A program made the position numbers and the translations under genes. This document shows positions 2,768 to 48,245 of a stretch of 64,000 nt of DNA, piece after piece. Numbering within the stretch: the stretch's first letter is position 1; every line of letters begins with the position of its first letter. Source of the DNA: Candidatus Parcubacteria bacterium (GTDB lineage Bacteria > Patescibacteriota > Patescibacteriia > UBA1558 > GWA2-36-10); the NCBI GenBank assembly GCA_018664825.1, contig JABJNO010000010.1, positions 8,832 through 72,831 of the forward strand, in the 5' to 3' direction. The notes beneath the pieces were generated by a model. The model ran no database searches, was not told the DNA's origin, and saw only the letters and a program-made list of their open reading frames with translations.

Positions 2768-4345
2768 TTATACCAAAGAACTACCAGTCATCTCTGGTGG
2801 TTTTTTTATTCCCATAATTTTTAAAATAGTAGGGGCAACATCTGCCAAAACTCCTACTGGAGTGACATGACTCAAGTCTGTCCCCGTCATCCCTGACAAA
2901 ACACTCTTGCCAGCAAACTCCGAACCAATAATAAAAAGTGGCACCGGACTATTGGTGTGATCTTTTTCTATTTCACCAGTTTGCATATTATAAAGTGACT
3001 CAGCATTGCCATGATCGGCAGTGATCAACACTACACCATCATAAGACAAGGTAGTATCCACAACCTCGGCTATCAACTGATCCAAAATTTCTATTGACTC
3101 AATGGTAGCTTGGATATTCCCACTGTGTCCGACCATATCCGGATTGGCATAGTTGGCAACTACAAAATCATAGGCGCCTTCTTTTATAAATTGAGTTATC
3201 TTGGCTGTAATTTCTCGAGCAGACATAGCTGGCTTTTGATCGTATGATGTCACCTGAGGAGAAGGAATCAATGTCCTGTCTTCACCCTCATATATTGTTT
3301 CTTTGCCTCCGTTGAAAAAATAAGTAACGTGAGCATATTTTTCTGTTTCAGCTATATGCAGTTGTTTGAGCCCAGCCTCTGACAATACTCTGGCCATTGG
3401 CATTTCTATCTGCAAAGGAGGAAAGGCAACTATCGCCGGTAAATCTTTTTCGTATTCAGCCATTGTCACCATAAATAAATTTTGAAAATAATCTCTTTTA
3501 AATTTTTCAAAAGCAGGTAAGACCAAAGATTGGGTCAGTTGCCTAGCTCTGTCAGATCTAAAATTAAAATATATTATTGCATCTTTATCTTTTATTTGAG
3601 CTCTCGGCTTACCTAGGTCATTGGTAATAATAGTAGGAACAAATTCCTCATCATAGACCTTGGTGTCATAAGAATCCTGGATTGCCTTGAGAGGATCTTC
3701 GTATTTTTTATCACTCTCGCCATCCACCATTGCTCGAAAAGCTTTTTCTACTCTATCCCAACGATTGTCTCTATCCATGGCCCAAAACCTACCAGACAAA
3801 GTCGCTATCTGCCCTAGGCCCACTTCTTTGAGCTTGTCTTGTAATTTGGTAATAAAATTGAGACCACTGTTGTATGGGACATCACGTCCATCCAAAAAAC
3901 AATGTACAAAAAGTCTAGTCACTTTTTGTTTTTTGGCTAGCTCTATCAGGGCGTATAGATGCTCGTTGTAGCTGTGGACACCTCCGGAGCTGACCAATCC
4001 CATCAAGTGCAAGGCACTGTCATTTTTTTTGACATGATCACAGGCCTTGATAAAAGCCTCATTTTCATAAAACTCTCCATCGGTAATAGCCTTGGTAATT
4101 TTTGGTAAATCTTGATAGGGAATTACTCCGCTACCCAAGGCCAAATGGCCAACTTGTGAATTACCCATTTCACCCCAAGACAAACCAACTGCTTCTCCGC
4201 TAGCCGCAAGTGGCATAATAGGATAATTTGAAGAATACTTATCAAAATTTGGTGTTTTTGCTAGTGAAATAGCATTGGAACGAGATGGTGGAGCTATTCC
4301 GAATCCATCTAAAATTAGTAATACTACTGGTTTTGGTCTACTCAT
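2768..4345 (-). CDS. gpmI: 2,3-bisphosphoglycerate-independent phosphoglycerate mutase
   Basis: VVLLILDGFGI, ADHGN and metal-binding motifs. 525 aa. Confidence 0.9.
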   Translation of the reverse strand: MSRPKPVVLLILDGFGIAPPSRSNAISLAKTPNFDKYSSNYPIMPLAASGEAVGLSWGEMGNSQVGHLALGSGVIPYQDLPKITKAITDGEFYENEAFIKACDHVKKNDSALHLMGLVSSGGVHSYNEHLYALIELAKKQKVTRLFVHCFLDGRDVPYNSGLNFITKLQDKLKEVGLGQIATLSGRFWAMDRDNRWDRVEKAFRAMVDGESDKKYEDPLKAIQDSYDTKVYDEEFVPTIITNDLGKPRAQIKDKDAIIYFNFRSDRARQLTQSLVLPAFEKFKRDYFQNLFMVTMAEYEKDLPAIVAFPPLQIEMPMARVLSEAGLKQLHIAETEKYAHVTYFFNGGKETIYEGEDRTLIPSPQVTSYDQKPAMSAREITAKITQFIKEGAYDFVVANYANPDMVGHSGNIQATIESIEILDQLIAEVVDTTLSYDGVVLITADHGNAESLYNMQTGEIEKDHTNSPVPLFIIGSEFAGKSVLSGMTGTDLSHVTPVGVLADVAPTILKIMGIKKPPEMTGSSLV

Positions 4346-5911
4346 TTATTTTTTGTTTATTAAAGATTTTGAAGTCATCAATTTTGGTGATTTTACTCCC
4401 AAAATATCCAAAATAGTTGGAGCAATATTGGCCAACTTACCATCTTTTTTTAATTTATATTTTTTGTGATTTACTATGACAAAGGGTACTGGATTCCCAG
4501 AATGCTTTGTATCTACTTCGTCTGTCTTAAGATTTATCATTTCTTCTACATTGCCGTGATCAGCGGTCACTATCAGAGTACCGTTTTTTGCCAAAGTTGT
4601 ATCTATTATTTTCCCTAGATATTGATCAACATACTCTACCGCTTTGATACCTGCCTCGAGATTACCCGTGTGTCCTACCATATCTGGACTAGCAAAATTG
4701 ACTACAATAAAATCAAATTGATCGAGCTCTACTGCCTTGATTACATAATCTCCCACCTCTTTGGTACTCATCTCTGGCTTCTCATCATAAGATAATACAT
4801 TTTTTGATGCAATCTCTACTCTTTCTTCCCCGGCTATCGAATGATCATATCCACCGTTGAAAAAATAAGTGACATGAGCATATTTTTCTGTCTCTGAAAT
4901 ATAAAGTTGTTTAAAATCTTTCATAGCTATGGTCAGGGAATCCGGCAAATCAATACCTGGATAAGCAGTCAAAACTCCTGGCAAGTCTGGTCCAAAATCA
5001 GTCAAAGCTACAAACAACAAATCCTTTGGTATCTTTTTTCTTTGAAAAGAATTTTTGTTTTTTTTCTCAAAATCAGGCTGTACAAATGATTTGGTCAGTT
5101 GACGAGCTCTGTCTGATCTCAGATTAAAAAATACTACCGCATCATTGTCGTTGATCGGTCCAATTGGTTGTTTGTTTTTGACAACAACCGAAGGAGTAAT
5201 AAACTCGTCACTTTCACCTTTGTTGTAAGCCTGATTGACAGCCTCAAGGGCTGACTCTACTTTGTTGCCCTCTCCCATCACTATAGCCTCATATGCCTTG
5301 GCTGTACGATCCCAGGCCTTTTTACGATCCATAGCATAAAACCTACCCATGATAGTAGCAATTTTTACTCGCTTGGTATCAAAGACACTCCTGTATTGTC
5401 CCAGTATCTTCAAAGCTGCAAACCTCGGACTATCACGACCATCGGTAAAAAGATGCAAATAAATTTTTTGCTTTGTTTTGCCAAGGAAAAAACTAAGCAA
5501 AGAAAGCAGATGATCGTCATCCGAATGAGGACTACTGACGTCTGACAAAAGTCCAATCAAATGAATATCTGATTTATTTTTTTCAACATGATTGGCGGCT
5601 TGCAAAAAAGCGGGATTCTTGAAAAATGTTCCGTTGTTTATACTTTTTGAAATTACTACAGCATCTTGCTCAACTACTCTACCAGCACCGATATTCATAT
5701 GCCCTGCCTCGGAATTTCCTGGATGTCCAGTAGGCAAACCAATATTTTTGCCAGAAGCCTGGATATTTACGTTGGGATATTGTTTTAGCAAAGCATCCAT
5801 CCGCGGAGTGTCTGCCAGGGCAATAGCGTTTCCTTTTTTTTCTTTCCAGATTCCCCAGCCATCCAAAATAGCCAACACCAATGGACAATTTTCTTTCTTC
5901 GATTTATTCAT
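4346..5911 (-). CDS. gpmI: 2,3-bisphosphoglycerate-independent phosphoglycerate mutase, divergent tandem paralog
   Basis: LVLAILDGWGI...TADHGN. Same architecture as the downstream copy and directly abutting it (4345/4346). Confidence 0.85.
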   Translation of the reverse strand: MNKSKKENCPLVLAILDGWGIWKEKKGNAIALADTPRMDALLKQYPNVNIQASGKNIGLPTGHPGNSEAGHMNIGAGRVVEQDAVVISKSINNGTFFKNPAFLQAANHVEKNKSDIHLIGLLSDVSSPHSDDDHLLSLLSFFLGKTKQKIYLHLFTDGRDSPRFAALKILGQYRSVFDTKRVKIATIMGRFYAMDRKKAWDRTAKAYEAIVMGEGNKVESALEAVNQAYNKGESDEFITPSVVVKNKQPIGPINDNDAVVFFNLRSDRARQLTKSFVQPDFEKKNKNSFQRKKIPKDLLFVALTDFGPDLPGVLTAYPGIDLPDSLTIAMKDFKQLYISETEKYAHVTYFFNGGYDHSIAGEERVEIASKNVLSYDEKPEMSTKEVGDYVIKAVELDQFDFIVVNFASPDMVGHTGNLEAGIKAVEYVDQYLGKIIDTTLAKNGTLIVTADHGNVEEMINLKTDEVDTKHSGNPVPFVIVNHKKYKLKKDGKLANIAPTILDILGVKSPKLMTSKSLINKK

Positions 5912-5952
5912 ATATTTTTCCGCCTCACCATGTCAAAATGACAAGGTTTATA

Positions 5953-7227
5953 TTAATTATTTAATTTTTCTTCAATGTTTAATAGTCTATTGTACTTGGC
6001 TGTTCGCTCTCCTCTAGAGGTAGAACCTGTCTTGATGTACTCTGCATTTACAGCTACTGCTAAATCAGCAATAGTAGTATCCGCTGTTTCACCACTACGA
6101 TGAGATACTATCACTTGATAATCATTTTCCTGAGCATAACGGATAGCCTCCAATGTCTCTGACAATGTACCTATTTGATTGAGCTTTATCAAAATAGAAT
6201 TTGCTACACCCATCTCAATCCCTTTTTTCAAACGTTTTACATTGGTGACAAACAAATCATCTCCCACTACCACAACATCGTTGTTTTTTATAAACTGATC
6301 ACTTGTAAAATCTTGCCAGTTTTCCCAATCCTCCTGATCTAGTGGATCTTCTACTATACGCAGTGGATATATCTCCATCAAATCAAAATAAAAGTCTATC
6401 AATTCATCGCCTGTTAGATTTTTATTTTCCAAAGGCAATTCATATTTTTTTGTTTTTTCATTATAAAATTCTGAGGCTCCAGCATCTATACCTAGATTTA
6501 TATCTTTGCCTGGTTTGTAACCTGCATTTTCGATAGCTTGTAATATCAAATCAAAAACCTGACGATGTGATTTTACATTTGGTGAATAACCCCCTTCGTT
6601 ACCCAAATCTGTATCCATACCAACTGAGTGAAGTAGCTCTCCCAACTTGTGAAATATTTCACTAGACTGCCTCAATTTGTCTGAAAATGTCTTGGCTTTG
6701 TGAGCGACTAACCAAAATTCTTGAATATTTATATTTGTACCACCATGCGCTCCTCCATTTATGACATTGACTACTGGAGTTGGTAATTTGTATTTTTTTA
6801 GTTTTGGATTGTACAAACTACGGATATATTCATAAAGCTGGACATTGTTTGCTTTGGCAGCAGTACTCATCACTGCTAGAGACACAGCCAAGATTGCATT
6901 GGCTCCTAGGCTTGATTTGTTTTTGGTACCATCAAGATCTATCATCATCTGGTCTATTTGAGTTTGCTCAAACACTGACACGCCTTCCAGGGCATCATTT
7001 ATCTTGGTGTTTACATTTTCTACGGCTTTCAAGACTCCTTTGCCTTCGTAGCGATGTGGATCACCATCTCGTAGCTCATAAGCCTCAAAACGACCAGTCG
7101 AAGCCCCAGAGGGCACCGCAGAAGTAGCTGATGTCCCGTTGGATAGCTCCACTGTAGCCTGGACAGTCGGATTGCCTCGTGAATCCAATATTTCTAAAGC
7201 ATGAATTTTTTTTATTTTGTTTGGCAT
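5953..7227 (-). CDS. eno: Enolase
   Basis: IHALEILDSRGNPTVQATVEL...SGETADTTIADLAV. 424 aa. Confidence 0.95.
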   Translation of the reverse strand: MPNKIKKIHALEILDSRGNPTVQATVELSNGTSATSAVPSGASTGRFEAYELRDGDPHRYEGKGVLKAVENVNTKINDALEGVSVFEQTQIDQMMIDLDGTKNKSSLGANAILAVSLAVMSTAAKANNVQLYEYIRSLYNPKLKKYKLPTPVVNVINGGAHGGTNINIQEFWLVAHKAKTFSDKLRQSSEIFHKLGELLHSVGMDTDLGNEGGYSPNVKSHRQVFDLILQAIENAGYKPGKDINLGIDAGASEFYNEKTKKYELPLENKNLTGDELIDFYFDLMEIYPLRIVEDPLDQEDWENWQDFTSDQFIKNNDVVVVGDDLFVTNVKRLKKGIEMGVANSILIKLNQIGTLSETLEAIRYAQENDYQVIVSHRSGETADTTIADLAVAVNAEYIKTGSTSRGERTAKYNRLLNIEEKLNN

Positions 7228-20302: not shown

Positions 20303-23300
20303 TTATCTATTAAATTTATGTTCGAATTGTATATCTATATTATAGTTAGAGACTACACCCAAATTCTGCCCTAAAGCTGTATAATTATTGGCTGAATCAG
20401 AAAATAAATTATCATATCCAGAGTCAAAAGAGAAATCATATTTATCTGTAATGTATGTATTAAATGTCCATTCTCCATTTTCTTTATGCCCTCTGATCAA
20501 ATTTGTATACGTACCATGTATTGAAGTTTTTAAATCACCAGAATTAAATTCAAGTCTTTCATCTTTATTAACATTTTTATCACTATACTGTATAATTCTA
20601 TCTTTATTATTACTTTCTGCCTCAGAAACTAAATTTCTTAATTTATCCTTATATTCACCAGATGCTTTTATTTCATCTATAATATAAGAATGCTCATTAT
20701 TTGATCTCACACTAATGTCACTAGGATTCAATGATAAAGAGTGGTCAAGAAAATCCGCAGAAGCTCGCTTACCGGTGGCCTGATAATAACCTACGCCTCC
20801 CACGAAATGAGATTTTATAGTTGCTGTTCCAAGAGGATTTAGCAGCCAAGCTCTTAAAGAGGCGTTTCCTGTTGGATCTACATAAACTACCGGATTATTA
20901 ACTGCGTAGGCATAAGAGTTTAATTCTTGCGGGTTCGCCAAAAGTACACCTGTATCTTTATTATACTCACCTGAGTCTAAAATATCAACCATTAACGGGT
21001 CAATAGATAAGAAATGCCCCGTCTCATTGTCATAGTACCTATTTACAAAATATTGTATACCCGTCTCTTCATCAACTTCTTTTCCGGTAAAGTCATATTC
21101 ATTACTCATATTTGTAACAATGTTTTCGTATGCTTTACTACCATATGGATAATAGTCTATTTGTTCAGCTACTGTGCCCGTATCATCTGTAAGTATAGAG
21201 CTAGAACCCAAATGATCTCCCAATAGATAATATGGATTATCATTGTTGTTTAAAGTAGCTAGTTTTATGTTTCCCAAATATACATGACTTTTAGTATTGT
21301 CTCCCAAATCTTTTTGGAAATATTTATCTACATACTTATCTTCTTTTATTCTACGCCATTCCCAGTGTCCTCCTCCACCCATAGGAGCAGCCATACCTCT
21401 CATCATGATTGGCTCTTCGTGTGGATCTGGTGGGATAAACACATAATCTTCAGTGTATTTGAGCATTCTTTGATTGTTGTGATCATACTTATAATAAGTA
21501 CTATTTTCAGTAGCTATATCATAAGTACTCTTTAGTCTACTGCGGTGATCCCAGGCAAACTTGGTGATGCCACCATTTCTAGTCATATTACCAGCATCAT
21601 CGTACATAAATGTCCTAGTATCATAACCAGACAATTGATGAGGATTGTCATTGTCGTAGTCCATAACGCCAAGATTGCTATTGTAGGTCATATTGCCCAC
21701 AGCATCATACTGATATGTGCGTGTATAATCATCGGTCGGATGAGTGACATAAGAAACTGTACTAGTGCCCAGACGATTTAGATCGTCGTATTGATAATCT
21801 ACTGTCTTGGCCAAGTCAGTATCAGAAGCGTCTACAATCTGCATGATGTTACCGATATTATCATAATCATAGTGCATGTCTTGTAGAGTAGTTGTGCTTT
21901 GTACTGATACCAGATCTGTAAGTCGGAAATTTTCCAATGGATCATAAGTATAATCTGTAATTACGCCATTGGCTCGTTCGTAGTGAGTCATCTGGCCATT
22001 TTGATTGTACTCTATACTGTCTGACAAGATAGCACCTCCTGTGCCTTTATCCAAAAGCACCTCGTCTACTTGCCCCACGCCATTGAATGCGTAGGTGACG
22101 ACCCATCCATTTGGATAAGTAATTTCTTTGAGATTACCACCAAGGTTGTAGTCATACTTCATGACAAAACTTTCGTTTTCTATGGTAGTGGTCGCTGTCC
22201 TTAGTCTACCCAAGGTGTCATAGTCATAGGCCTTGCTATTACCTCCTCCATAATCTGCAAATGACAATTGTCCAACGTCATCGTTTTGATCATAGGTATA
22301 GCTTATTTGATTTGCTCCTGAAAGCTTTTCATACAAAACTCTATTGAGATCATCATAAACATATGATATGGCATCGCCTTTAAAACTAGCTTCTGTCAAA
22401 ACATTACCATTTTTGTCGTGAGTGTAGTTTATCTTTTCTGGAGTAGCGACAGATGACTTATGGACCATGTCCTGCCAGTCTAGATTGTCCAAAACATCAT
22501 AGTGGAAATTACGGATGTTGCCCTGACTGTCTGTGATTTTTTCTAGCTTGTTGGTCAAGGTATAATCATAGCCAGTGGTATAAGTACTAACGCCATTGTA
22601 TTCTTTGACTTCTACTAGATTGCCATATGCATCCTTGGTCAAATCTTTTTGAATACCATTGGCATCGGTGATAGTAGTTTTGAAGCCATCGTATTCGTAG
22701 CTAGTCACTCCTGTTGGAGTAGACTCTGACAATACCCTGTCCAAAGCATCATATGTATATGTCTTGGCTGGCTTGGTCAGATTTGGACTACTGTATGAAA
22801 TACTATTCGTAATATATGGCAAAGACTGATGAACTACTCTACCCTGCGAATCATACAACGTGTCTACTGTAGTATATTGACCAGTTGTAGCTGTGTTGGC
22901 TTTTTTCTGGATTACTCTATCTAGTCCATCATAGTATTCACGGCTAGTACTAAAATTTGATGCGTCAAAATAATCTTTTACCTCTACATAACGAGGTAAA
23001 GTACTATCTTGGTAGCTTATTTCTTGTTTTTTGACCAAGGTGGCTGGAGTGTCAGCGTCTGAAATCCAAACTTCTTTGGTCCTACCAAAAGCGTCAAATC
23101 TATTGACGGTCTTGGCTCCTGTTGGAGATGTAGTTGTTGCTACCTGACTGTTGAATAGATTGTATTCTGTATAGGTTGCTTGGTTGAGATCATTGGTAGT
23201 GGTAGCTGGATATAGATTATGACTATCATAAGCTATGGTTGTAGTAGCTTTTTCAGGGCTAATTTCTTTGTTTACCAGGCCATAACTATTGAACTCTCTA

Positions 23301-26300
23301 TCTATCTCTACACCATCTGTAATGTAGTCTTCTTTGGTAAGATTTACTTTATCTACAGAGCCATGAGCCTGCTTGTTGTAATACAAGTCCTGCTCTTTGC
23401 TGTCTACTGTGTCTGAGATAGTCCTAGTCTTTGGAGCAGACAAAATGTGTTTAGTGGTATTTTGAGCGTATTCATAATCAGTGTCTTTTTCGTCACCTGA
23501 TAAGATGTTGGTTATTTGTCCTGTATCTATATTGGCCACTACTTTACCCAAATTTGCCTCCGTATCTAAATTACCATTTATAAAATTATAATAATTTTCT
23601 TTAGCCACACTAGTTTCATAATATGGTTCTTGGGTATTATGATAATAATTATAAATCGAGGTACCGCTACGAGCTACATTTGATATCCTAAACTCATCCA
23701 TAGAGAACAATCCTGCATCATTGCATGATTCTTTGTGACAAGCCAAAACCAAATGAGTGTTTACAACAGGGTCCAGGGTCAGGGTCACTGGCGCTTGCCC
23801 AGCCAAATCACCATCTATATAAATATAAGCATTATTGGTATCCATCACAAAAGCAAAATGTTGCCATTGTCCTAATTTTATCAAACCAGTATCTGATATA
23901 ACTGTCCAAGTATATTTATCCGCACTAGAAGTAAATACTATATATGAATTATCATTAGAATATTCAACATAAAAGCCATGATCATAGCTATCTTTGTTAC
24001 CCAAGGGTCTACCTGCTATAGCCTTGGCTCCGTTATTTTTTATCCACCCCTCTATACTAAATGCCCCAGCTCCCAAACCACCGATGTTTGTATCCAAACG
24101 CATTGAACCCCCTGTGGATCTATAGGATCCATCAACTTCCTCATTGAAACCAACGTCAATGGCACTTATATTTTCTTCTGTTAAATCATAAGCTGCATTT
24201 CCTTGGGCGTTATCTTTTTTTTCTGCGGTATCCCGAGGACCATCCATGTGGTATAGGGCTATAGTACTAGCATCAGAAGAGTACTCTGCCAAGGGCCCTT
24301 CTTCAAGTAAGTGAATTTGTGTATTTATATTTTCATCAAGATAAGTAAATTTTCTATCACCACTCAAATTGTATGTTAGCCAATTATTATTTTGTTTACT
24401 TAGCAAATTATCACCTGAGTCATATTTACTATTTGATTTTAATCTACCATGTAAATACAAGTTATCATCTTTGGCAATATGATATTCATTTATAGTTTTC
24501 TGCATTTCAGCTCCAACAGAATTTTTGATAGAATAATCAAATTCACCTAGACTATAATAACTTGGATTGGTGGTACCTACGATTGTATCTGCTTCTACAC
24601 TAATACGCCCATCAGCTCCGTTGCCACCATTATTTGAATAACTACCTACTCCACCATCGCCTCCGTAAGCATGAATAAGGTTGGTACCCAAGTCAGCTGT
24701 TTCTATAACTCTTATATTAATACTGCCACCAGAGCCTCCTCCAGCTCCTCCGGTATAATGCCCTGCATTTCCATCCCCATCTCCTCCATCTATACCATTG
24801 GCATTTATTTCTCCATTTACTATCAAACTATTAGCAAAAATCTGAACAATGCCTCCACCGGCACCACCATGAGCTCCATTGGCAGGTAAAGAGTAGCCAG
24901 AGCCTCCTCCGCCAGAACCAGCAAAAATAGGATCCAACTCTTGATTTCCATAAGTCACTCCACCAATGCCATAGGGAGCAGAAACTTGTCCGTCTTGTCC
25001 ATCGGCAACGTGCCCGGCACCGCCACCGCCTCCTGTTCTCTCTAAATTTACATATCCTCCACCGCCTCCTGCACCAGGACCACCTCCCGGTTGACCATAA
25101 AGGCCAGCTGCACCACCTCCAGAATAACCTTTGCCTTCGGCAGTTAAAATACCATCAATCGTAACTTGTCCTTGTACTTTGATTATTACACCCGACTCTA
25201 CTGTGATAGTGTGTCCGGATTGGATGTGCATAGAAGTAAAATTTTTATTAGTAGTCCAAGTTGTAGAAGTTGTAGAAATAAAAACTCCATCTGAACCATC
25301 TCCCATATCTACATCTGGCATAGCTTGTCCTGTTTTATTCTGGGCTTTAGCAAAGCCAAAAACATCTTTTATTTTGTCAGATGGATAACTCTCTGCTTTA
25401 CCGTCTGAATATTGATATTCTTTTCCTATCCACTCATCCATTCCATTATCAACCACCACTTCTTTGACTGTATAAATATTAAAAGGAAGCTCTGGATTTA
25501 GTAGATTTCCATTTTCATCTTTTTCGTTGGCCGAATAATCATAATATACACGTAGCTTGGCGCCCGATTGATAATTTACCTGTTCCAAAATATCCAATTT
25601 TTCTCCCTCACCATAATAAACAGTGTCAGAGGCTGATCCCCAAGAATGCATTACATCTTGCGCTTGATCTCCATTGAAATCTGCAATAGCTACTGGTATT
25701 GAATTATTATAATAACTAATACTGCTTATCCAGCCGGTATCAAATATCGTTTGATCTAATAAATATATAGTCCCTTTAGAATTCCAATCTGTGCCAGAAT
25801 TCCAAGTATCTTTAGAAAAAGATCCTACATCAAAAATTCCATCACCATCAACATCCATGATGTAACTAACATTTAATCCAGAGCTAGTATTTACTACATA
25901 ATGACTTGGTCTATTAGGAGCAGTAAAAACACTAGAATTATATAATAAACTACCTGTATTCAAATAAACTGCTTCGCCCTCATCTATTATTGGTACGCCG
26001 CCTGCCTCATAAGAATAAATACAATAATAATTATAATATACATCTAATAAACCATCATTGTTTACATCGGAAAATCCAAATGGATCACCTCCATATTTTA
26101 AACAATCACTAGAAGCCATGTCCACAGAGACATTATAATCTAAGCCTATATCCCAATTCCCTGTAATGATATTTCGCATATAAACATCCACTTCTGAATC
26201 ATGATTGGCTGGATGATGATTATAAACAATGTCATCATAACCATCTTTGTTCATATCTTGAAACATTACAGTGTTCATAAGTGCTCCACTGTTACCAGCA

Positions 26301-27910
26301 CTCTGAAATAAAGATACTGGTAAAGTATGAACAATCGGAGAATCCCAACCACTCCCATTATTATAATAAATATTTGTATCTGTCACCATATCTATCAAAT
26401 GATCTCCATTTAATTCGGCAAATGATACTGGCACCGAATATCTTATGCCAATACCAGCACAAGTAAAGCCACTGCCAAAACTTTCTGAAAATGCAGCAGA
26501 ACTCGTCCAACCACCGTCTCCGTCATTGAGATAAACATCTGTACTTAAATTTGTATTGGAACAATTTATACGTATATAATCTGTAAAACTGTCAGAATTC
26601 AAATCAATAAACATATCACGCTTATTGGTGGTAACACTCAATCCCTCGCCAAGATAATAGCTATTTGGCAAAGTATAGCCAGTGCCCTCTGCATAAGTAG
26701 TCGGCTGATAACTATATTCAAAATCTACTTGATCTTTTACAGAAAAATTACTACCTTCATAATATTTTGGTACTATAGAATCAAGTAAGTATTTATTCTG
26801 ATTAGTATTTAAAGATAAGTCTAAATCATAAGAAGTAAACAAGCTACCATCAATTTTGATATCTATTTTATCTACTAAATATTTTGTTTGAACTGCAAAA
26901 CCAGTTTCATAAGAAAGATTCAACAAATTATTTTCTACTGGAGTACCATGAGCAAAGGGCTCAAAATTTACTGTAAAAATCCCATCTGTGGTGCCGTATC
27001 CAGTATAAGTAATTTTCTTTGGATAAATTTCCCCTGAATCTTTATAGTATTCATACTTCACATAATTATCATTGGTATCTCTCACTTCTTCGAGCATCCA
27101 TTTATAAACTTGACTGGTATTACCAGGATTATCTTGTCTAGCCAGAGCAGAGCTTCCATAGCTATAAACCGTGCCCATTTTATCAGTAACAATCCACTTA
27201 TTAGCACTATTAAATTCAATCTTAGAAAAATCATTTTCCACTAATTTTCCATATGTACCATAACCATTTCCATCTACACTAATAGGCTCCAATCTACTGC
27301 CATTTAGTAAAAAATAATTTTGACTATACATATTATCAACACCCGTCCTATTTTCTCTACTAACACTAGGCATTGATACTTCCCAACCAAAACCAAGCAT
27401 AGAACCAATGTTTGTCTGCCGATGATTATACTGCAGAGCAACGCTTGGTTGTAGACCGTTTCTACCTTGGGGAATTTGAATAGGATAACCATAACTAAAT
27501 GCACCTGTAAATTCATCTACATTGTATTGACCTGTTTGGTCTTTTGGTTTTAAGCCAGAGTTGTCCCGTCCAGCGTACATATCCAAAGGAACTTCATCTC
27601 CGGAAGTCAACAGTGCCATTGGATCTTCAATCGGCGCTTCAATTGTTGGATCCTCTACTATTGGATCTACTACAATCGGATCATCTATTATTGGTTCTTT
27701 AATAATCTCCGGCACTTGCTTTATTTCCTCCGGAATAGGCAAGGCAAGTTCCTGAACTCCCTCCACAGCCTGCATTTGTTCTACAAGTGCTTCTACTTGC
27801 ACTTCCCTGGCTTGAACAGACAGAGTCGGTGCTAGCGAAGTAAATACCAAACTACAAATCAAAAATCTGATTGTGATTTGATAAAATCTTGATTTTTTAG
27901 TTACTTTCAT
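20303..27910 (-). CDS. Giant secreted Rhs/YD-repeat polymorphic toxin (SpvB-like N-domain, FG-GAP/VCBS repeats, Gly-rich region, LamG-like domain, YD repeats, Rhs core, variable C-terminal domain)
   Basis: Signal peptide MKVTKKSRFYQITIRFLICSLVFTSLAPTLSVQA. SpvB-like segment IQIPQGRNGLQPSVALQYNHRQTNIGSMLGFGWEV. FG-GAP-like VNNDGLLD / DVDGDGIFD / DFNGDQAQD. Many YD repeats (YTYDALDRVLSE, YEYDGF, YDYTLTNKLEKITDSQGN). Rhs core YLLGDHLGSSSILTDDTG...YYPYGS...FTGKEVDEETGIQYFVNRYYDNETGHFLSIDPL...NPVVYVDPTGN, followed by a C-terminal extension of about 220 aa. Confidence 0.85.
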   Translation of the reverse strand: MKVTKKSRFYQITIRFLICSLVFTSLAPTLSVQAREVQVEALVEQMQAVEGVQELALPIPEEIKQVPEIIKEPIIDDPIVVDPIVEDPTIEAPIEDPMALLTSGDEVPLDMYAGRDNSGLKPKDQTGQYNVDEFTGAFSYGYPIQIPQGRNGLQPSVALQYNHRQTNIGSMLGFGWEVSMPSVSRENRTGVDNMYSQNYFLLNGSRLEPISVDGNGYGTYGKLVENDFSKIEFNSANKWIVTDKMGTVYSYGSSALARQDNPGNTSQVYKWMLEEVRDTNDNYVKYEYYKDSGEIYPKKITYTGYGTTDGIFTVNFEPFAHGTPVENNLLNLSYETGFAVQTKYLVDKIDIKIDGSLFTSYDLDLSLNTNQNKYLLDSIVPKYYEGSNFSVKDQVDFEYSYQPTTYAEGTGYTLPNSYYLGEGLSVTTNKRDMFIDLNSDSFTDYIRINCSNTNLSTDVYLNDGDGGWTSSAAFSESFGSGFTCAGIGIRYSVPVSFAELNGDHLIDMVTDTNIYYNNGSGWDSPIVHTLPVSLFQSAGNSGALMNTVMFQDMNKDGYDDIVYNHHPANHDSEVDVYMRNIITGNWDIGLDYNVSVDMASSDCLKYGGDPFGFSDVNNDGLLDVYYNYYCIYSYEAGGVPIIDEGEAVYLNTGSLLYNSSVFTAPNRPSHYVVNTSSGLNVSYIMDVDGDGIFDVGSFSKDTWNSGTDWNSKGTIYLLDQTIFDTGWISSISYYNNSIPVAIADFNGDQAQDVMHSWGSASDTVYYGEGEKLDILEQVNYQSGAKLRVYYDYSANEKDENGNLLNPELPFNIYTVKEVVVDNGMDEWIGKEYQYSDGKAESYPSDKIKDVFGFAKAQNKTGQAMPDVDMGDGSDGVFISTTSTTWTTNKNFTSMHIQSGHTITVESGVIIKVQGQVTIDGILTAEGKGYSGGGAAGLYGQPGGGPGAGGGGGYVNLERTGGGGGAGHVADGQDGQVSAPYGIGGVTYGNQELDPIFAGSGGGGSGYSLPANGAHGGAGGGIVQIFANSLIVNGEINANGIDGGDGDGNAGHYTGGAGGGSGGSINIRVIETADLGTNLIHAYGGDGGVGSYSNNGGNGADGRISVEADTIVGTTNPSYYSLGEFDYSIKNSVGAEMQKTINEYHIAKDDNLYLHGRLKSNSKYDSGDNLLSKQNNNWLTYNLSGDRKFTYLDENINTQIHLLEEGPLAEYSSDASTIALYHMDGPRDTAEKKDNAQGNAAYDLTEENISAIDVGFNEEVDGSYRSTGGSMRLDTNIGGLGAGAFSIEGWIKNNGAKAIAGRPLGNKDSYDHGFYVEYSNDNSYIVFTSSADKYTWTVISDTGLIKLGQWQHFAFVMDTNNAYIYIDGDLAGQAPVTLTLDPVVNTHLVLACHKESCNDAGLFSMDEFRISNVARSGTSIYNYYHNTQEPYYETSVAKENYYNFINGNLDTEANLGKVVANIDTGQITNILSGDEKDTDYEYAQNTTKHILSAPKTRTISDTVDSKEQDLYYNKQAHGSVDKVNLTKEDYITDGVEIDREFNSYGLVNKEISPEKATTTIAYDSHNLYPATTTNDLNQATYTEYNLFNSQVATTTSPTGAKTVNRFDAFGRTKEVWISDADTPATLVKKQEISYQDSTLPRYVEVKDYFDASNFSTSREYYDGLDRVIQKKANTATTGQYTTVDTLYDSQGRVVHQSLPYITNSISYSSPNLTKPAKTYTYDALDRVLSESTPTGVTSYEYDGFKTTITDANGIQKDLTKDAYGNLVEVKEYNGVSTYTTGYDYTLTNKLEKITDSQGNIRNFHYDVLDNLDWQDMVHKSSVATPEKINYTHDKNGNVLTEASFKGDAISYVYDDLNRVLYEKLSGANQISYTYDQNDDVGQLSFADYGGGNSKAYDYDTLGRLRTATTTIENESFVMKYDYNLGGNLKEITYPNGWVVTYAFNGVGQVDEVLLDKGTGGAILSDSIEYNQNGQMTHYERANGVITDYTYDPLENFRLTDLVSVQSTTTLQDMHYDYDNIGNIMQIVDASDTDLAKTVDYQYDDLNRLGTSTVSYVTHPTDDYTRTYQYDAVGNMTYNSNLGVMDYDNDNPHQLSGYDTRTFMYDDAGNMTRNGGITKFAWDHRSRLKSTYDIATENSTYYKYDHNNQRMLKYTEDYVFIPPDPHEEPIMMRGMAAPMGGGGHWEWRRIKEDKYVDKYFQKDLGDNTKSHVYLGNIKLATLNNNDNPYYLLGDHLGSSSILTDDTGTVAEQIDYYPYGSKAYENIVTNMSNEYDFTGKEVDEETGIQYFVNRYYDNETGHFLSIDPLMVDILDSGEYNKDTGVLLANPQELNSYAYAVNNPVVYVDPTGNASLRAWLLNPLGTATIKSHFVGGVGYYQATGKRASADFLDHSLSLNPSDISVRSNNEHSYIIDEIKASGEYKDKLRNLVSEAESNNKDRIIQYSDKNVNKDERLEFNSGDLKTSIHGTYTNLIRGHKENGEWTFNTYITDKYDFSFDSGYDNLFSDSANNYTALGQNLGVVSNYNIDIQFEHKFNR

Positions 27911-41570: not shown

Positions 41571-41611
41571 ATGCTTATTTTATCAATTAATATTATAGCA
41601 TTTTTAAAAAA

Positions 41612-41647
41612 TAAAAGCCCGTCTTTTTTTGAAGACGGGCTGTTTTG
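41612..41647. terminator. Bidirectional hairpin terminator
   Basis: AAAAGCCCGTCTTTTTTTGAAGACGGGCTGTTTT. Confidence 0.65.
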
Positions 41648-41648
41648 G

Positions 41649-41724
41649 GCCCGGATACTGGATTCGAACCAATGACCTCTTCCGTTTTTAGGGGAAGCGC
41701 TCTATCCTGCTGAGCTAATCCGGG
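41649..41724 (-). tRNA. tRNA with an atypical 9-nt anticodon loop (isotype undetermined), genomically encoded CCA
   Basis: Minus-strand tRNA: acceptor CCCGGAT/ATCCGGG, D-arm GCTC-AGCAGGATA-GAGC, T-arm ATTGG-TTCGAAT-CCAGT, discriminator C then CCA. The anticodon stem CTTCC/GGAAG encloses CCUAAAAAC (9 nt instead of 7). Confidence 0.55.
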
Positions 41725-41848
41725 AATTTGATGTAGTGAGCTTGAAAAGAAGCGGAACCAGAACTTCTTGGCTTTTTTTGTTGCCCCTGCAAATCAAGTT
41801 TTGGGAGCGCCTCCCAAGACCGACCTACAAGTCAAGCCCACCGTTTTG

Positions 41849-41947
41849 TGGAGCCCACTGACGGATTCGAACCGCCGACCGCTTGATTAGTCTTTAGGTT
41901 TGTACCTGACCAGACCTCAAGTGCTCTACCAACTGAGCTAAGTGGGC
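41849..41947 (-). tRNA. tRNA-like gene with a 23-nt insertion in the anticodon arm, CCA encoded
   Basis: GCCCACT-TA-GCTCAGTTGGTAGAGC-A-CTTGA[GGTCTGGTCAGGTACAAACCTAAAGACTAA]TCAAG-CGGTC-GGCGGTTCGAATCCGTC-AGTGGGC-T-CCA. The D and T arms are canonical, but the anticodon region is 30 nt. Confidence 0.5.
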
Positions 41948-42304
41948 TATAGAATCTTTCTCGTCTATAAAAAGAGGCCGGATGAAAAGGATATATAATC
42001 CTCGATGTTCATTGTTGTGCAGCCACCTAAGCACCAGAACACCCCTAGACGGGATAAGGTTCATCCGGCGATGATAGGGCTGGGTGTCGGAGACATATTG
42101 TCTCAATGTTCATTGTTTACCGCCCTCGCCTTTGGCAGTAAGTGAACATTTTTACAACACCCAGCTGTACGATTTCGGTGCAAAACGAAGAGGTGCTGGG
42201 GAATCAAATTTGATCAATCCCCGGAAACTTCAGGACTACTTTTGAGAAAAGCCTATTTATCTGGACAAAAATAGTTAGAAGGATCTTTACAGCACCTCGA
42301 TTCT

Positions 42305-42379
42305 ATAAAATTGGCACCCCCAGCAGGATTCGAACCCGCGACGCCTGGTTTTGGAGACCAGCGCTCTAACCGGACTGAG
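42305..42379 (-). tRNA. tRNA-Trp (anticodon CCA)
   Basis: GCCCCCA-TA-GCTC-AGTCCGGTTA-GAGC-G-CTGGT-CTCCAAA-ACCAG-GCGTC-GCGGG-TTCGAAT-CCTGC-TGGGGGT-G(CCA). Anticodon loop CU-CCA-AA. Confidence 0.85.
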
Positions 42380-42522
42380 CTATGGGGGCGCCTATTCACA
42401 TGAAAACGAACTATTAAAGCATAGTCTATAATACCACAGGCTAATCTTTTGTCAATAGCCATAAAACCCCTATAAACAAAGGATTTGTCTAAAATATAGC
42501 TAAAATAAGAGGCTTTTACCCC

Positions 42523-42551
42523 TTGACAAAAATACACATATATGTTAGTAT
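42523..42551 (+). promoter_or_regulatory. Sigma-70-type promoter (TTGACA, 17-nt spacer, TAGTAT)
   Basis: Exact -35 TTGACA at 42523-42528 and -10 TAGTAT at 42546-42551 with a 17-nt spacer. It faces a terminator about 120 nt downstream, and there is no CDS between them. Confidence 0.55.
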
Positions 42552-42557
42552 GCAATC

Positions 42558-42703
42558 ACTGTGCCCTTCTTAAGGGTTGTTTGAAAGGTTTCAGTACTTG
42601 TGTGCATTTTGAAACCGCCAGCAGTCTAGACTGCTCAACAAGGATGGTGTCACAATGCCCGATCATATCGCCCCCGTTAGTTTACTAGCGGGGGCCTTTT
42701 TTT
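42558..42703 (+). ncRNA. Candidate small non-coding RNA (about 145 nt), unclassified
   Basis: Bounded by the promoter above and the intrinsic terminator GCCCCCGTTAGTTTACTAGCGGGGGC + T7 at 42670-42703. Internal hairpins: GCCCUUCUUAAGGGU, GGUUUCA...UGAAACC, and the palindrome GCAGUCUAGACUGC. No ORF. Confidence 0.4.
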
Positions 42704-42718
42704 AATAATAATCATAAA

Positions 42719-46924: not shown

Positions 46925-47578
46925 ATGCAAAAAATTAATGCTAGAAAAATAAAAAAATTAGACTTAATATTATTTGATTTTCATAATACATTATCTAATT
47001 CTTTATTTTATACTGGCCTAGAAAAAGAGTACCCCGAAATATCCTACAAATTATCAAAAAATATATTCAATAATAAAAATAAAATTCCCATCCTAGAAAA
47101 ATGGATGAAAGGAAAATATACTTATAAAGAATTTAATAGAATTGTAGCAAAAGAAATAAAATGTAAACCAGCGATACTTGATTACCACTTAGAAAAAAGC
47201 GTCAAAAGAATGTCTTTGAATAAAGACTTAATTTATTTTGCAAAAAATATGAAAAAACGAGGTATAAAAGTTGTAATATTTACTGATAACATGGATCCAT
47301 TTAAAAAAATGGTAGTCCCCAATCTTAAACTTAACGATACCTTTGATAATATAATATCATCTTGGGATTATAAAATGTTAAAAGAGGAAAAAAATGGTAG
47401 ATTTGTAGATGTCATATTAAAACAAATGAAAATCGAAATTAAAAAAACCCTCCTAATAGACGACTCTTTGGGTATATCTAAAATTATAAGAAACAAGGGA
47501 GGACACAGCTATCTATACAAAGATTATAATAATGAATTTCCTAAATTCTATGCTTGGTTTACAAAAAAATTTTTATAA
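46925..47578 (+). CDS. Hypothetical protein, possibly HAD-like
   Basis: LILFDFHNTL is a weak HAD motif-I-like segment. Confidence 0.25.
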   Translation: MQKINARKIKKLDLILFDFHNTLSNSLFYTGLEKEYPEISYKLSKNIFNNKNKIPILEKWMKGKYTYKEFNRIVAKEIKCKPAILDYHLEKSVKRMSLNKDLIYFAKNMKKRGIKVVIFTDNMDPFKKMVVPNLKLNDTFDNIISSWDYKMLKEEKNGRFVDVILKQMKIEIKKTLLIDDSLGISKIIRNKGGHSYLYKDYNNEFPKFYAWFTKKFL

Positions 47579-48245
47579 TTTTACAAATCTCTGAAAATTG
47601 TACCTCAAAATTTAAACTATCCTTTATAGCATAACTAGCATACGACTCTCTAAAACTAACTTTTCTATCATTAAGTAAAGATATTGGGTCATTTTTTATT
47701 TTTTTGTAAATTTTTTTGCCAAGCAACTTTTCATGTAAATAAATTTTGAATTTTTCTTTATCCAGATCATCGATCAATATGTCATATATCTTATTTATAT
47801 CAAAAACGTCCTTAAATTCAGATCTATTTTCTTGAAAGATATTGCTAATTTTTTCGGCAAAAATATCCTCCAAAGAATGTGTCTTTACAGAAAAACCTTT
47901 TTTGTTATATTCCAAGCCTTTATCCTCCCAGCTAAACAACTTCGCTGATAAGGGATAAAAATCTATTTCCAAAATTACCTCTTTATCGTCTTTGATTATT
48001 ATTTTATTTGGATCAGCATCACAAACATATTTTTTATTCAGCTTAACCGCTATTTCCTCCACCACATCAAACAACTCTGATCTGAGCTGATAGTCCTCTA
48101 TAGTAAAATCCAAGTCATTTGAAAATACACGATCCAAGTTATAAATAAAAGACAAAGCAGCTCCACCTTCCAAATATAAATACTTACTGATATCCTTACT
48201 TGATAATAGATACAAAAATTGTAAAAAAATATTTTTATCGTTCAT
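47559..48245 (-). CDS. Nucleotidyltransferase-fold protein (AbiEii/DUF1814-like)
   Basis: LEGGAALSFIYNLDRVFSNDLDF matches the GG...R.S.DLDF motif of pol-beta-superfamily AbiEii-like nucleotidyltransferases. Confidence 0.45.
   Translation of the reverse strand: MNDKNIFLQFLYLLSSKDISKYLYLEGGAALSFIYNLDRVFSNDLDFTIEDYQLRSELFDVVEEIAVKLNKKYVCDADPNKIIIKDDKEVILEIDFYPLSAKLFSWEDKGLEYNKKGFSVKTHSLEDIFAEKISNIFQENRSEFKDVFDINKIYDILIDDLDKEKFKIYLHEKLLGKKIYKKIKNDPISLLNDRKVSFRESYASYAIKDSLNFEVQFSEICKIIKIFL

Follow-up and report, generated by a model that had tools for sequence, protein, structure and literature searches.

What, if anything, is the role of a bacterial gene that preserves the whole body of a tRNA and has its 7-nt anticodon loop replaced by a hairpin-forming segment of 30 nt? 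The question is raised by tRNA-X, a gene found in a 64-kb stretch of DNA from a Candidatus Parcubacteria bacterium that was analysed as a whole and is referred to below as the window. This stretch has the content of an ordinary bacterial chromosome, with genes for ribosomal protein S2, EF-Ts, a PCRF release factor and a sigma-70 factor, for CysRS, a class-I W/Y aminoacyl-tRNA synthetase and glycolytic enzymes; in NCBI its proteins are assigned to Candidatus Parcubacteria bacterium (GCA_018670855.1). The window also encodes, all on the minus strand, two tandem paralogues of cofactor-independent phosphoglycerate mutase (2768-5911), a 2,535-aa RHS/SpvB/laminin-G protein (20303-27910) and an AbiEii-type nucleotidyltransferase toxin (47559-48245). 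The original prediction located tRNA-X without naming its strand, which is the minus strand (41849..41947), and proposed either a short intron or a tRNA-derived structured RNA. The explanation that we favour, with moderate confidence, is that tRNA-X is a tRNA-like structural module no longer used in decoding, probably kept as a signal for RNase P processing or as punctuation.

Results

tRNA-X combines a complete tRNA body with a lengthened anticodon arm

The body of tRNA-X is that of a canonical elongator. The 7-bp acceptor stem (GCCCACU/AGUGGGC) is followed by UA and the 4-bp D arm (GCUC-AGUUGGUA-GAGC) by A26, while the 5-bp anticodon stem (CUUGA/UCAAG, enclosing 30 nt) and the T arm (GGCGG-UUCGAAU-CCGUC), also of 5 bp, are separated by the variable region CGGUC; the discriminator is U73 and the CCA end is encoded. 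As read from the sequence, the tertiary nucleotides U8, A14, G18G19, G15:C48, T54-Psi55-C56 and A58 are kept as well. The Rfam tRNA family (RF00005) matches the gene over its full length with 55.5 bits (E=3e-9 over the 64 kb of the window), and the alignment covers 71/71 model positions with a 30-nt insertion in place of the 7-nt loop. The arms, variable loop, discriminator and CCA that had been described as canonical are intact, and the alignment bears out the original count of 30 nt instead of 7 between CTTGA and TCAAG.

The 30-nt segment (GGUCUGGUCAGGUACAAACCUAAAGACUAA; 41887..41916, minus strand) is predicted to extend the anticodon stem coaxially. The minimum free energy structure of the 99-mer is a cloverleaf with a long anticodon arm (-36.7 kcal/mol; z=-3.0), and 0/200 shuffled sequences were equally stable. 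When folded alone, the arm consists of the helices CUUGA/UCAAG, GGUCU/AGACU and AGGU/ACCU beneath an ACAA cap, that is, 5 bp, an AA bulge, 5 bp, a 4x2 internal loop and 4 bp, with a stability reached by only 4/200 shuffles (z=-2.5). Both folds agree with the earlier proposal that the insert lengthens the anticodon helix into a hairpin.

A 7-nt anticodon loop with U33 and a purine at position 37 is lacking in tRNA-X. ARAGORN missed the gene when run on the window with default settings, and with introns allowed (a check suggested at the outset) its one model was an implausible class-I 'tRNA-Ser(ACU)' from which 23 nt would be spliced out at 33/34 to leave the loop GGACUAA, with GG at positions 32-33. 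Enumeration of all contiguous 23-nt excisions yielded GGACUAA, GGUCUAA, GGUCUGA and similar loops, never with U33, in line with the initial remark that simple excision restores no 7-nt loop of this kind.

tRNA-X has a tRNA-Trp, a structured spacer RNA and another tRNA-like gene as neighbours

On the minus strand, a promoter is followed by tRNA-Trp, a spacer RNA, tRNA-X, tRNA-Y and a terminator, all within a 1.15-kb non-coding stretch between the genes for a 255-aa protein and for a TrmH/SpoU-family methyltransferase. The sigma-70-type promoter (42428..42455; TTGACA-16-TATTAT, 11/12, with an extended TG) is equally readable in two related species, whose loci (L067 and L068, one assembly each) were reached through methyltransferase homologues with 82% and 80% protein identity, respectively. 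The first gene (42312..42389) is a canonical tRNA-Trp(CCA) according to both ARAGORN and Rfam (64.5 bits). The intrinsic terminator (41606..41641), a 10-bp stem followed by a T run, is conserved in L067 and L068. As the order of the genes is kept in all three species and a single promoter and a single terminator enclose them, tRNA-Trp, the spacer RNA, tRNA-X and tRNA-Y are presumably co-transcribed.

The spacer RNA, located between tRNA-Trp and tRNA-X, spans ~230 nt (42078-42305) and is composed of two domains. Domain 1 (42181..42305, minus strand) forms a three-way junction with the closing helix GGUGCUG/CAGCACC, for which RNAalifold predicts 40 pairs across the three species, 7 of them compensatory. 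Domain 2 (42078..42165, minus strand) contains the invariant GGCGAGGGC and is closed by the helix CUGGGUGUUG/CGACACCCAG (written elsewhere as CUGGGUGUUG/CAACACCCAG); here 26 pairs are predicted, including 5 compensatory ones. No Rfam family matched the spacer RNA at E<=5 in the three species, and its identification as RNase P, tmRNA, SRP RNA, 6S RNA, a T-box or a ribozyme found no support in an Rfam match. A scan of viral contigs with domain 2 gave 0 matches.

Between domain 2 and tRNA-X, the window carries an additional module (41948..42077, minus strand) that is absent from L067 and L068. This module includes a 16-nt stretch that directly repeats part of domain 2 (CAATGAACAT..GAG; 42001-42016 and 42102-42117), indicating that several small duplications or insertions have occurred in the operon of this lineage. 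The spacer separating tRNA-X from tRNA-Y is also variable: in the window it covers 41725..41848 (minus strand) with a small hairpin at 41817-41801, in L067 it is reduced to 18 nt, and in L068 it comprises ~127 nt of unrelated sequence.

Two further observations concern the surroundings of these genes. The 3' side of the tRNA-Y anticodon arm (41675-41687) and the 3' end of domain 1 (42182-42194) are 85% complementary over 13 nt; L067 and L068 retain this complementarity only weakly, and chance is its probable origin. A divergently transcribed small RNA (~42558-42705, plus strand) is bracketed by a separate promoter (42523-42551) and terminator (42670-42705), and consists of a long, vaguely SRP-like hairpin that L067 and L068 share, 7 of its pairs being compensatory; its sole Rfam matches are driven by the terminator. 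We also considered whether the tRNA-like genes could be an autoregulatory mimic for the adjacent methyltransferase, which is unlikely given that the terminator and a separate TGnTATAAT promoter intervene.

The operon appears to have a narrow distribution. It is gone at loci encoding homologues of the upstream 255-aa protein with 66-73% identity, so that only three species carry it, and the comparisons below are comparisons of these three. A metagenome scan with the 3' half of the tRNA-Trp of this clade gave 0 matches, and the SpoU relatives among the metagenome matches listed were 31-42% identical, a level unfit for orthology.

The insertion is specific to the lineage of the window

The comparison of orthologous loci that had been recommended was carried out with L067 and L068, the two orthologues available, and neither has the insert. 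At the same operon position, tRNA-X has a 7-nt loop in L068 (GUCUUAA, with the lysine anticodon CUU) and a 6-nt loop in L067 (CUUUAA), so that two of the three orthologues have a non-canonical anticodon loop. Relative to GUCUUAA, ~22-23 nt of the 30-nt segment in the window are extra, and GGUCU...UAA is retained on either side of them. The absence of the insert from the orthologues and these retained flanks identify the ~22-23 nt as a lineage-specific insertion into the loop of a Lys(CUU)-type gene. The G32 of this loop is also found in a normal tRNA-Phe of the same group.

Within the window, the 23-mer has no second copy even with 3 mismatches allowed, belongs to no detectable repeat family and has no complementary target. 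A mobile element was rejected as its source: the 23-mer is unique, no repeat family includes it and integrase or transposase genes are absent nearby. We also searched a genome collection, in which the species of the window is not represented, for any tRNA of the form D-arm...N{39,59}...T-arm. The 61 loci recovered were chiefly tRNA-Tyr genes of Thermoplasmata with introns, and none of them resembled tRNA-X. Across the sequences scanned (genome collection, metagenome and window), the insert is conserved nowhere else.

Other tRNA-like genes of the clade are abnormal as well

tRNA-Y (41646..41724, minus strand; Rfam 51.2 bits), located immediately before the terminator, has a C73, an encoded CCA and a 9-nt anticodon loop (CCUAAAAAC), and is labelled 'Phe(AAA)' by ARAGORN. 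The corresponding loops have 8 nt in L068 (CGUAAAAC) and 5 nt in L067 (CCUUG, or alternatively CCCUUGG, which lacks U33); a canonical anticodon loop is therefore found in tRNA-Y in 0/3 species.

A third gene, tRNA-Z, sits between two spacer domains in L068 (1356-1468, plus strand) and is missing from the window and from L067. It has a Val/Ala-like cloverleaf with A73 and CCA, in which a ~45-nt hairpin replaces the anticodon loop. The inserts of tRNA-X and tRNA-Z have no motif, sequence or shape in common, as would be expected if their expansion were unconstrained. In a more distant relative (L069, 3830-3905, plus strand), a normal tRNA-Met and a normal tRNA-Phe are followed, just upstream of the methyltransferase gene, by a tRNA-like gene whose loop has 8 nt (AUUUCUUG) and which shows a C1xA72 mismatch and lacks CCA. 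At two further loci of more distant relatives (L160, 2380-2450; L161, 295-365; plus strand), the orthologous methyltransferase gene is again preceded by a tRNA-like gene, here a 69-nt tRNA-His(GUG)-like one with G-1, an 8-bp acceptor stem and the 7-nt loop GUGUGAA, devoid of both D arm and CCA (fold z=-4.4); tRNAs without a D arm are rare outside mitochondria. tRNA-Z and the genes at L069 and L160/L161 thus share a position, shortly upstream of this methyltransferase gene. Unselected control loci (L070 and L072-L159) contained 8 tRNAs, all canonical, a number too small to give a rate.

The stems of tRNA-X and tRNA-Y covary while their sequences change quickly

In each of tRNA-X and tRNA-Y, all 63/63 stem cells are paired across the three species and 6/21 pairs show compensatory changes. 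For tRNA-X, 0/500 shuffles reached this covariation, and only 29-46% of cells were paired in slid controls. Preservation of pairing is accompanied by rapid divergence: outside the loop, identity between species is 74-83% for tRNA-X and 80-87% for tRNA-Y, versus 86-96% for tRNA-Trp. Between L067 and L068, the tRNA-Trp genes are 96% identical and the tRNA-X genes 75%, and 3-4/7 acceptor pairs of tRNA-X differ between species. The slow, identity-preserving evolution of a canonical elongator is thus not seen in tRNA-X in these three species. Quick change without loss of pairs argues for a constraint on structure alone, and the sequence comparison indicates that selection on tRNA-X and tRNA-Y would act on their shape and not on the identity elements read by synthetases or the ribosome.

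Discussion

Based on the anatomy of tRNA-X, the covariation of its stems and the abnormal loops of its sister genes, the second alternative of the original prediction, a tRNA-derived structured RNA with an expanded hairpin, is the one that gains support. We propose that tRNA-X arose from a tRNA gene of the Lys(CUU) type, in an operon where one promoter would give rise to a transcript whose structured RNAs are set apart by tRNA shapes. RNase P and the 3' maturation enzymes read the acceptor/T-arm half of a tRNA. Selection would have acted on the L-shaped body alone (acceptor, D and T arms, tertiary nucleotides and CCA), the part seen by RNase P and by the enzymes of 3'-end maturation; the anticodon loop would have been freed from decoding constraint, and indels would therefore have accumulated in it. 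In the species of the window, an imperfect palindrome of ~22-23 nt would have been inserted, lengthening the anticodon arm in a direction that points away from the acceptor/T elbow and so should leave recognition by these enzymes undisturbed. tRNA-X, tRNA-Y and tRNA-Z would then serve as cleavage or stability signals that release and delimit the flanking non-coding RNAs. tRNA-X would accordingly be cut by RNase P and be neither aminoacylated nor used in decoding; punctuation is its most likely role, as argued from the arrangement of the operon.

The main rival explanation is that tRNA-X is a young pseudogene, namely a tRNA-Lys(CUU) gene recently inactivated by a small palindromic insertion (arising from replication slippage or a template switch), which has no function and has had no time to decay. 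Several observations are compatible with such an origin. The insert is present in one of the three species, and the canonical 7-nt CUU loop persists in L068, where tRNA-X may be a working tRNA, in which case the copy in the window may represent a recent loss. That loss would be tolerable since AAG can normally be read by tRNA-Lys(UUU), and the operon of this lineage has undergone the other small duplications and insertions described above. Moreover, the population is clonal: the five assemblies of the window species are identical, with no polymorphism, so that they leave the insertion undated and any constraint since then invisible. We nevertheless regard this explanation as less likely than a structural module. 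Ordinary bacterial tRNA pseudogenes, which tRNA-X resembles in having lost a usable anticodon loop, normally have broken stems and are unconserved, whereas tRNA-X and tRNA-Y retain every pair through compensatory change; not one pair of the tRNA-X stems is broken in any species at 17-26% divergence. The L067 copy of tRNA-X is independently abnormal, with its 6-nt loop, and tRNA-Y is abnormal in all three species and yet its cloverleaf covaries, so that in this operon tRNA shapes that do not decode are, as a rule, retained over the long term. In addition, the reduced genomes of CPR bacteria tend to delete dead DNA.

A less probable explanation, to which we give little weight, attributes a positive function to the insert itself: the expanded arm would be a protein- or RNA-binding module on a tRNA body, in the way that YrlA tethers Ro60. 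YrlA and other bacterial Y RNAs are Ro60-bound tRNA mimics in which a longer helix replaces the anticodon stem; YrlA is circularly permuted, carries the motif GNCGAAN0-1G and is encoded within 4 kb of rsr, the Ro60 gene, on the same strand (PMC4201824). tRNA-X shares with YrlA a tRNA-like body (D, T and acceptor arms) with a lengthened arm, and putatively also the fate of a substrate of RNase P and the CCA enzyme that does not decode. The arm is, as noted, more stable than shuffled sequences. tRNA-X differs from YrlA, however, in being arranged in normal tRNA order, in the absence of the GNCGAA/GGUCCGA motif from its 30-nt segment and in the absence of a TROVE/Ro60 gene from the 64-kb window (ORFs >=180 aa). 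The Rfam YrlA and Y_RNA families (RF02553 and RF00019) did not match tRNA-X, the insert is missing in the orthologues and has no complementary target in the window, and the inserts of tRNA-X and tRNA-Z are alike neither in sequence nor in shape. The arm (CUGGUC...AGGUA...GACUAAUC) may resemble the lower stem of human Y1; identification as a Y RNA on this ground was rejected because both the motif and the Ro60 gene are absent.

A precedent for such a scaffold comes from another bacterium. A Capsulimonadaceae MAG recovered in the genome-collection scan (L063) carries four tandem, non-permuted tRNA-like genes (6276-7184, minus strand) with conserved inserts of 48-82 nt at the anticodon position, which share the helix CC(G/A)UUUCC...GGAAAAUGGUUAUC. 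Directly downstream lies a Ro60 orthologue with TROVE and vWA_Ro60 domains (4498-6162, minus strand). As candidate Y RNAs, these genes differ in topology from the published YrlA, and the array shows that other bacteria also make use of tRNA bodies with an expanded anticodon arm. A sporadic case of a bacterial anticodon-arm insertion was also observed in a Eubacteriales MAG (L026, 6476-6571, minus strand), where a tRNA-Lys(CUU)-like gene has a ~19-nt hairpin just after the anticodon loop and a normal tRNA-Lys(CUU) is found 3.5 kb away.

Splicing is a still less credible explanation. According to this idea, a working tRNA would arise once the 23 nt had been removed and the halves joined, whether through an archaeal-type endonuclease with RtcB or through some novel bacterial pathway. 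Like the introns of archaeal and eukaryal tRNAs, which are handled by EndA together with RtcB or Trl1, the insert of tRNA-X is short, lies within the anticodon loop, pairs with loop nucleotides and extends the helix, and a model was obtained from ARAGORN in intron mode. In those introns, excision at a bulge-helix-bulge (BHB) motif, two 3-nt bulges around a 4-bp helix, restores the loop. Such introns usually lie at 37/38, a position that the insert of tRNA-X does not occupy. In its arm, a 5-bp helix stands between a 2-nt bulge and a 4x2 internal loop, and the 3-4-3 arrangement is absent. Position 33 is a G after any contiguous excision, the class-I 'Ser(ACU)' model interrupted at 33/34 is not credible, the orthologues lack any intron and are partly abnormal themselves, and the host is a bacterium. 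The lack of a BHB motif and of U33, together with the insert-less orthologues, means that no canonical decoder can be obtained from tRNA-X by excision, and we consider an archaeal/eukaryal-type intron very improbable. The search for enzymes that had been suggested recovered neither a splicing endonuclease nor an RNA ligase such as RtcB among the ~50 ORFs of the window, and thus covered 64 kb of the genome, which leaves the splicing idea some room.

To our knowledge, group I introns are the sole established tRNA introns of bacteria. They also interrupt anticodon loops (tRNA-Leu UAA, tRNA-fMet), but are ribozymes of ~200-300 nt. As already stated in the original prediction, the insert is too short for this class, with 23 nt against a core of at least ~200 nt; it is too short for group II as well, and no Rfam intron family matched at E<=1. 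Had the splicing explanation held, tRNA-X would have given bacteria their first example of a short tRNA intron removed by proteins, and setting this explanation aside removes a false lead. Contigs labelled as bacterial MAGs do occur with class-I tRNA-Tyr(GUA) genes containing introns of 13-15 nt at 37/38 (L044, 591-677; L065, 60-128; and L031; labelled Nitrospirales, Robiginitalea and Myxococcales). Their tRNA-Tyr genes are close to eukaryotic ones, and 16 tRNAs of eukaryotic style are packed into the 2.9-kb L031 contig; such contigs are likely to reflect contamination or mis-binning.

Finally, a sequencing or assembly artefact, or a chimeric contig, is the least tenable explanation and can be discounted almost entirely because, although the source data are metagenome-assembled, the tRNA-X region is identical over 2.6 kb (2,648 bp) in five independent assemblies (ENA, Logan and NCBI) from different samples and pipelines.

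Returning to the structural module, its closest functional analogues appear to be mitochondrial tRNA punctuation and the mascRNA of MALAT1 and MEN-beta, in which a non-decoding tRNA shape is kept so that polycistronic or long non-coding transcripts are cleaved at fixed points by RNase P and 3' enzymes; the closest analogue in form would be YrlA. The former systems are organellar or eukaryotic, and tRNA-X is likened to them by its arrangement, its cleavage being a prediction. The insert itself is reminiscent of rRNA expansion segments and intervening sequences, which are common in CPR bacteria and likewise place a lineage-specific hairpin at the tip of a conserved helix, away from functional surfaces. 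These segments differ in residing in rRNA, whereas the expansion of an anticodon loop in tRNA-X would necessarily abolish decoding.

As a tentative generalization, held with less confidence than the proposal for tRNA-X itself, a small clade of Parcubacteria may keep decoding-dead modules, with anticodon loops of 5-6, 8-9 or 30-47 nt, that punctuate the RNAs of the tRNA-Trp operon. If true, bacteria would here have an equivalent of mitochondrial tRNA punctuation and of mascRNA-type processing, and the expandable arm could supply raw material for Y-RNA-like scaffolds, a point relevant to the origin of tRNA mimics such as the Y RNAs. In tRNA-X and tRNA-Y the fold is conserved and decoding apparently is not, their anticodon arms expanding in the manner of rRNA expansion segments. 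There is also a consequence for the annotation of CPR genomes: tRNA-X is missed and tRNA-Y mislabelled by ARAGORN, which distorts estimates of tRNA complement and codon capacity. Lastly, the operon points to two structured RNAs of Parcubacteria that have so far gone unannotated and whose maturation may depend on tRNA-like modules.
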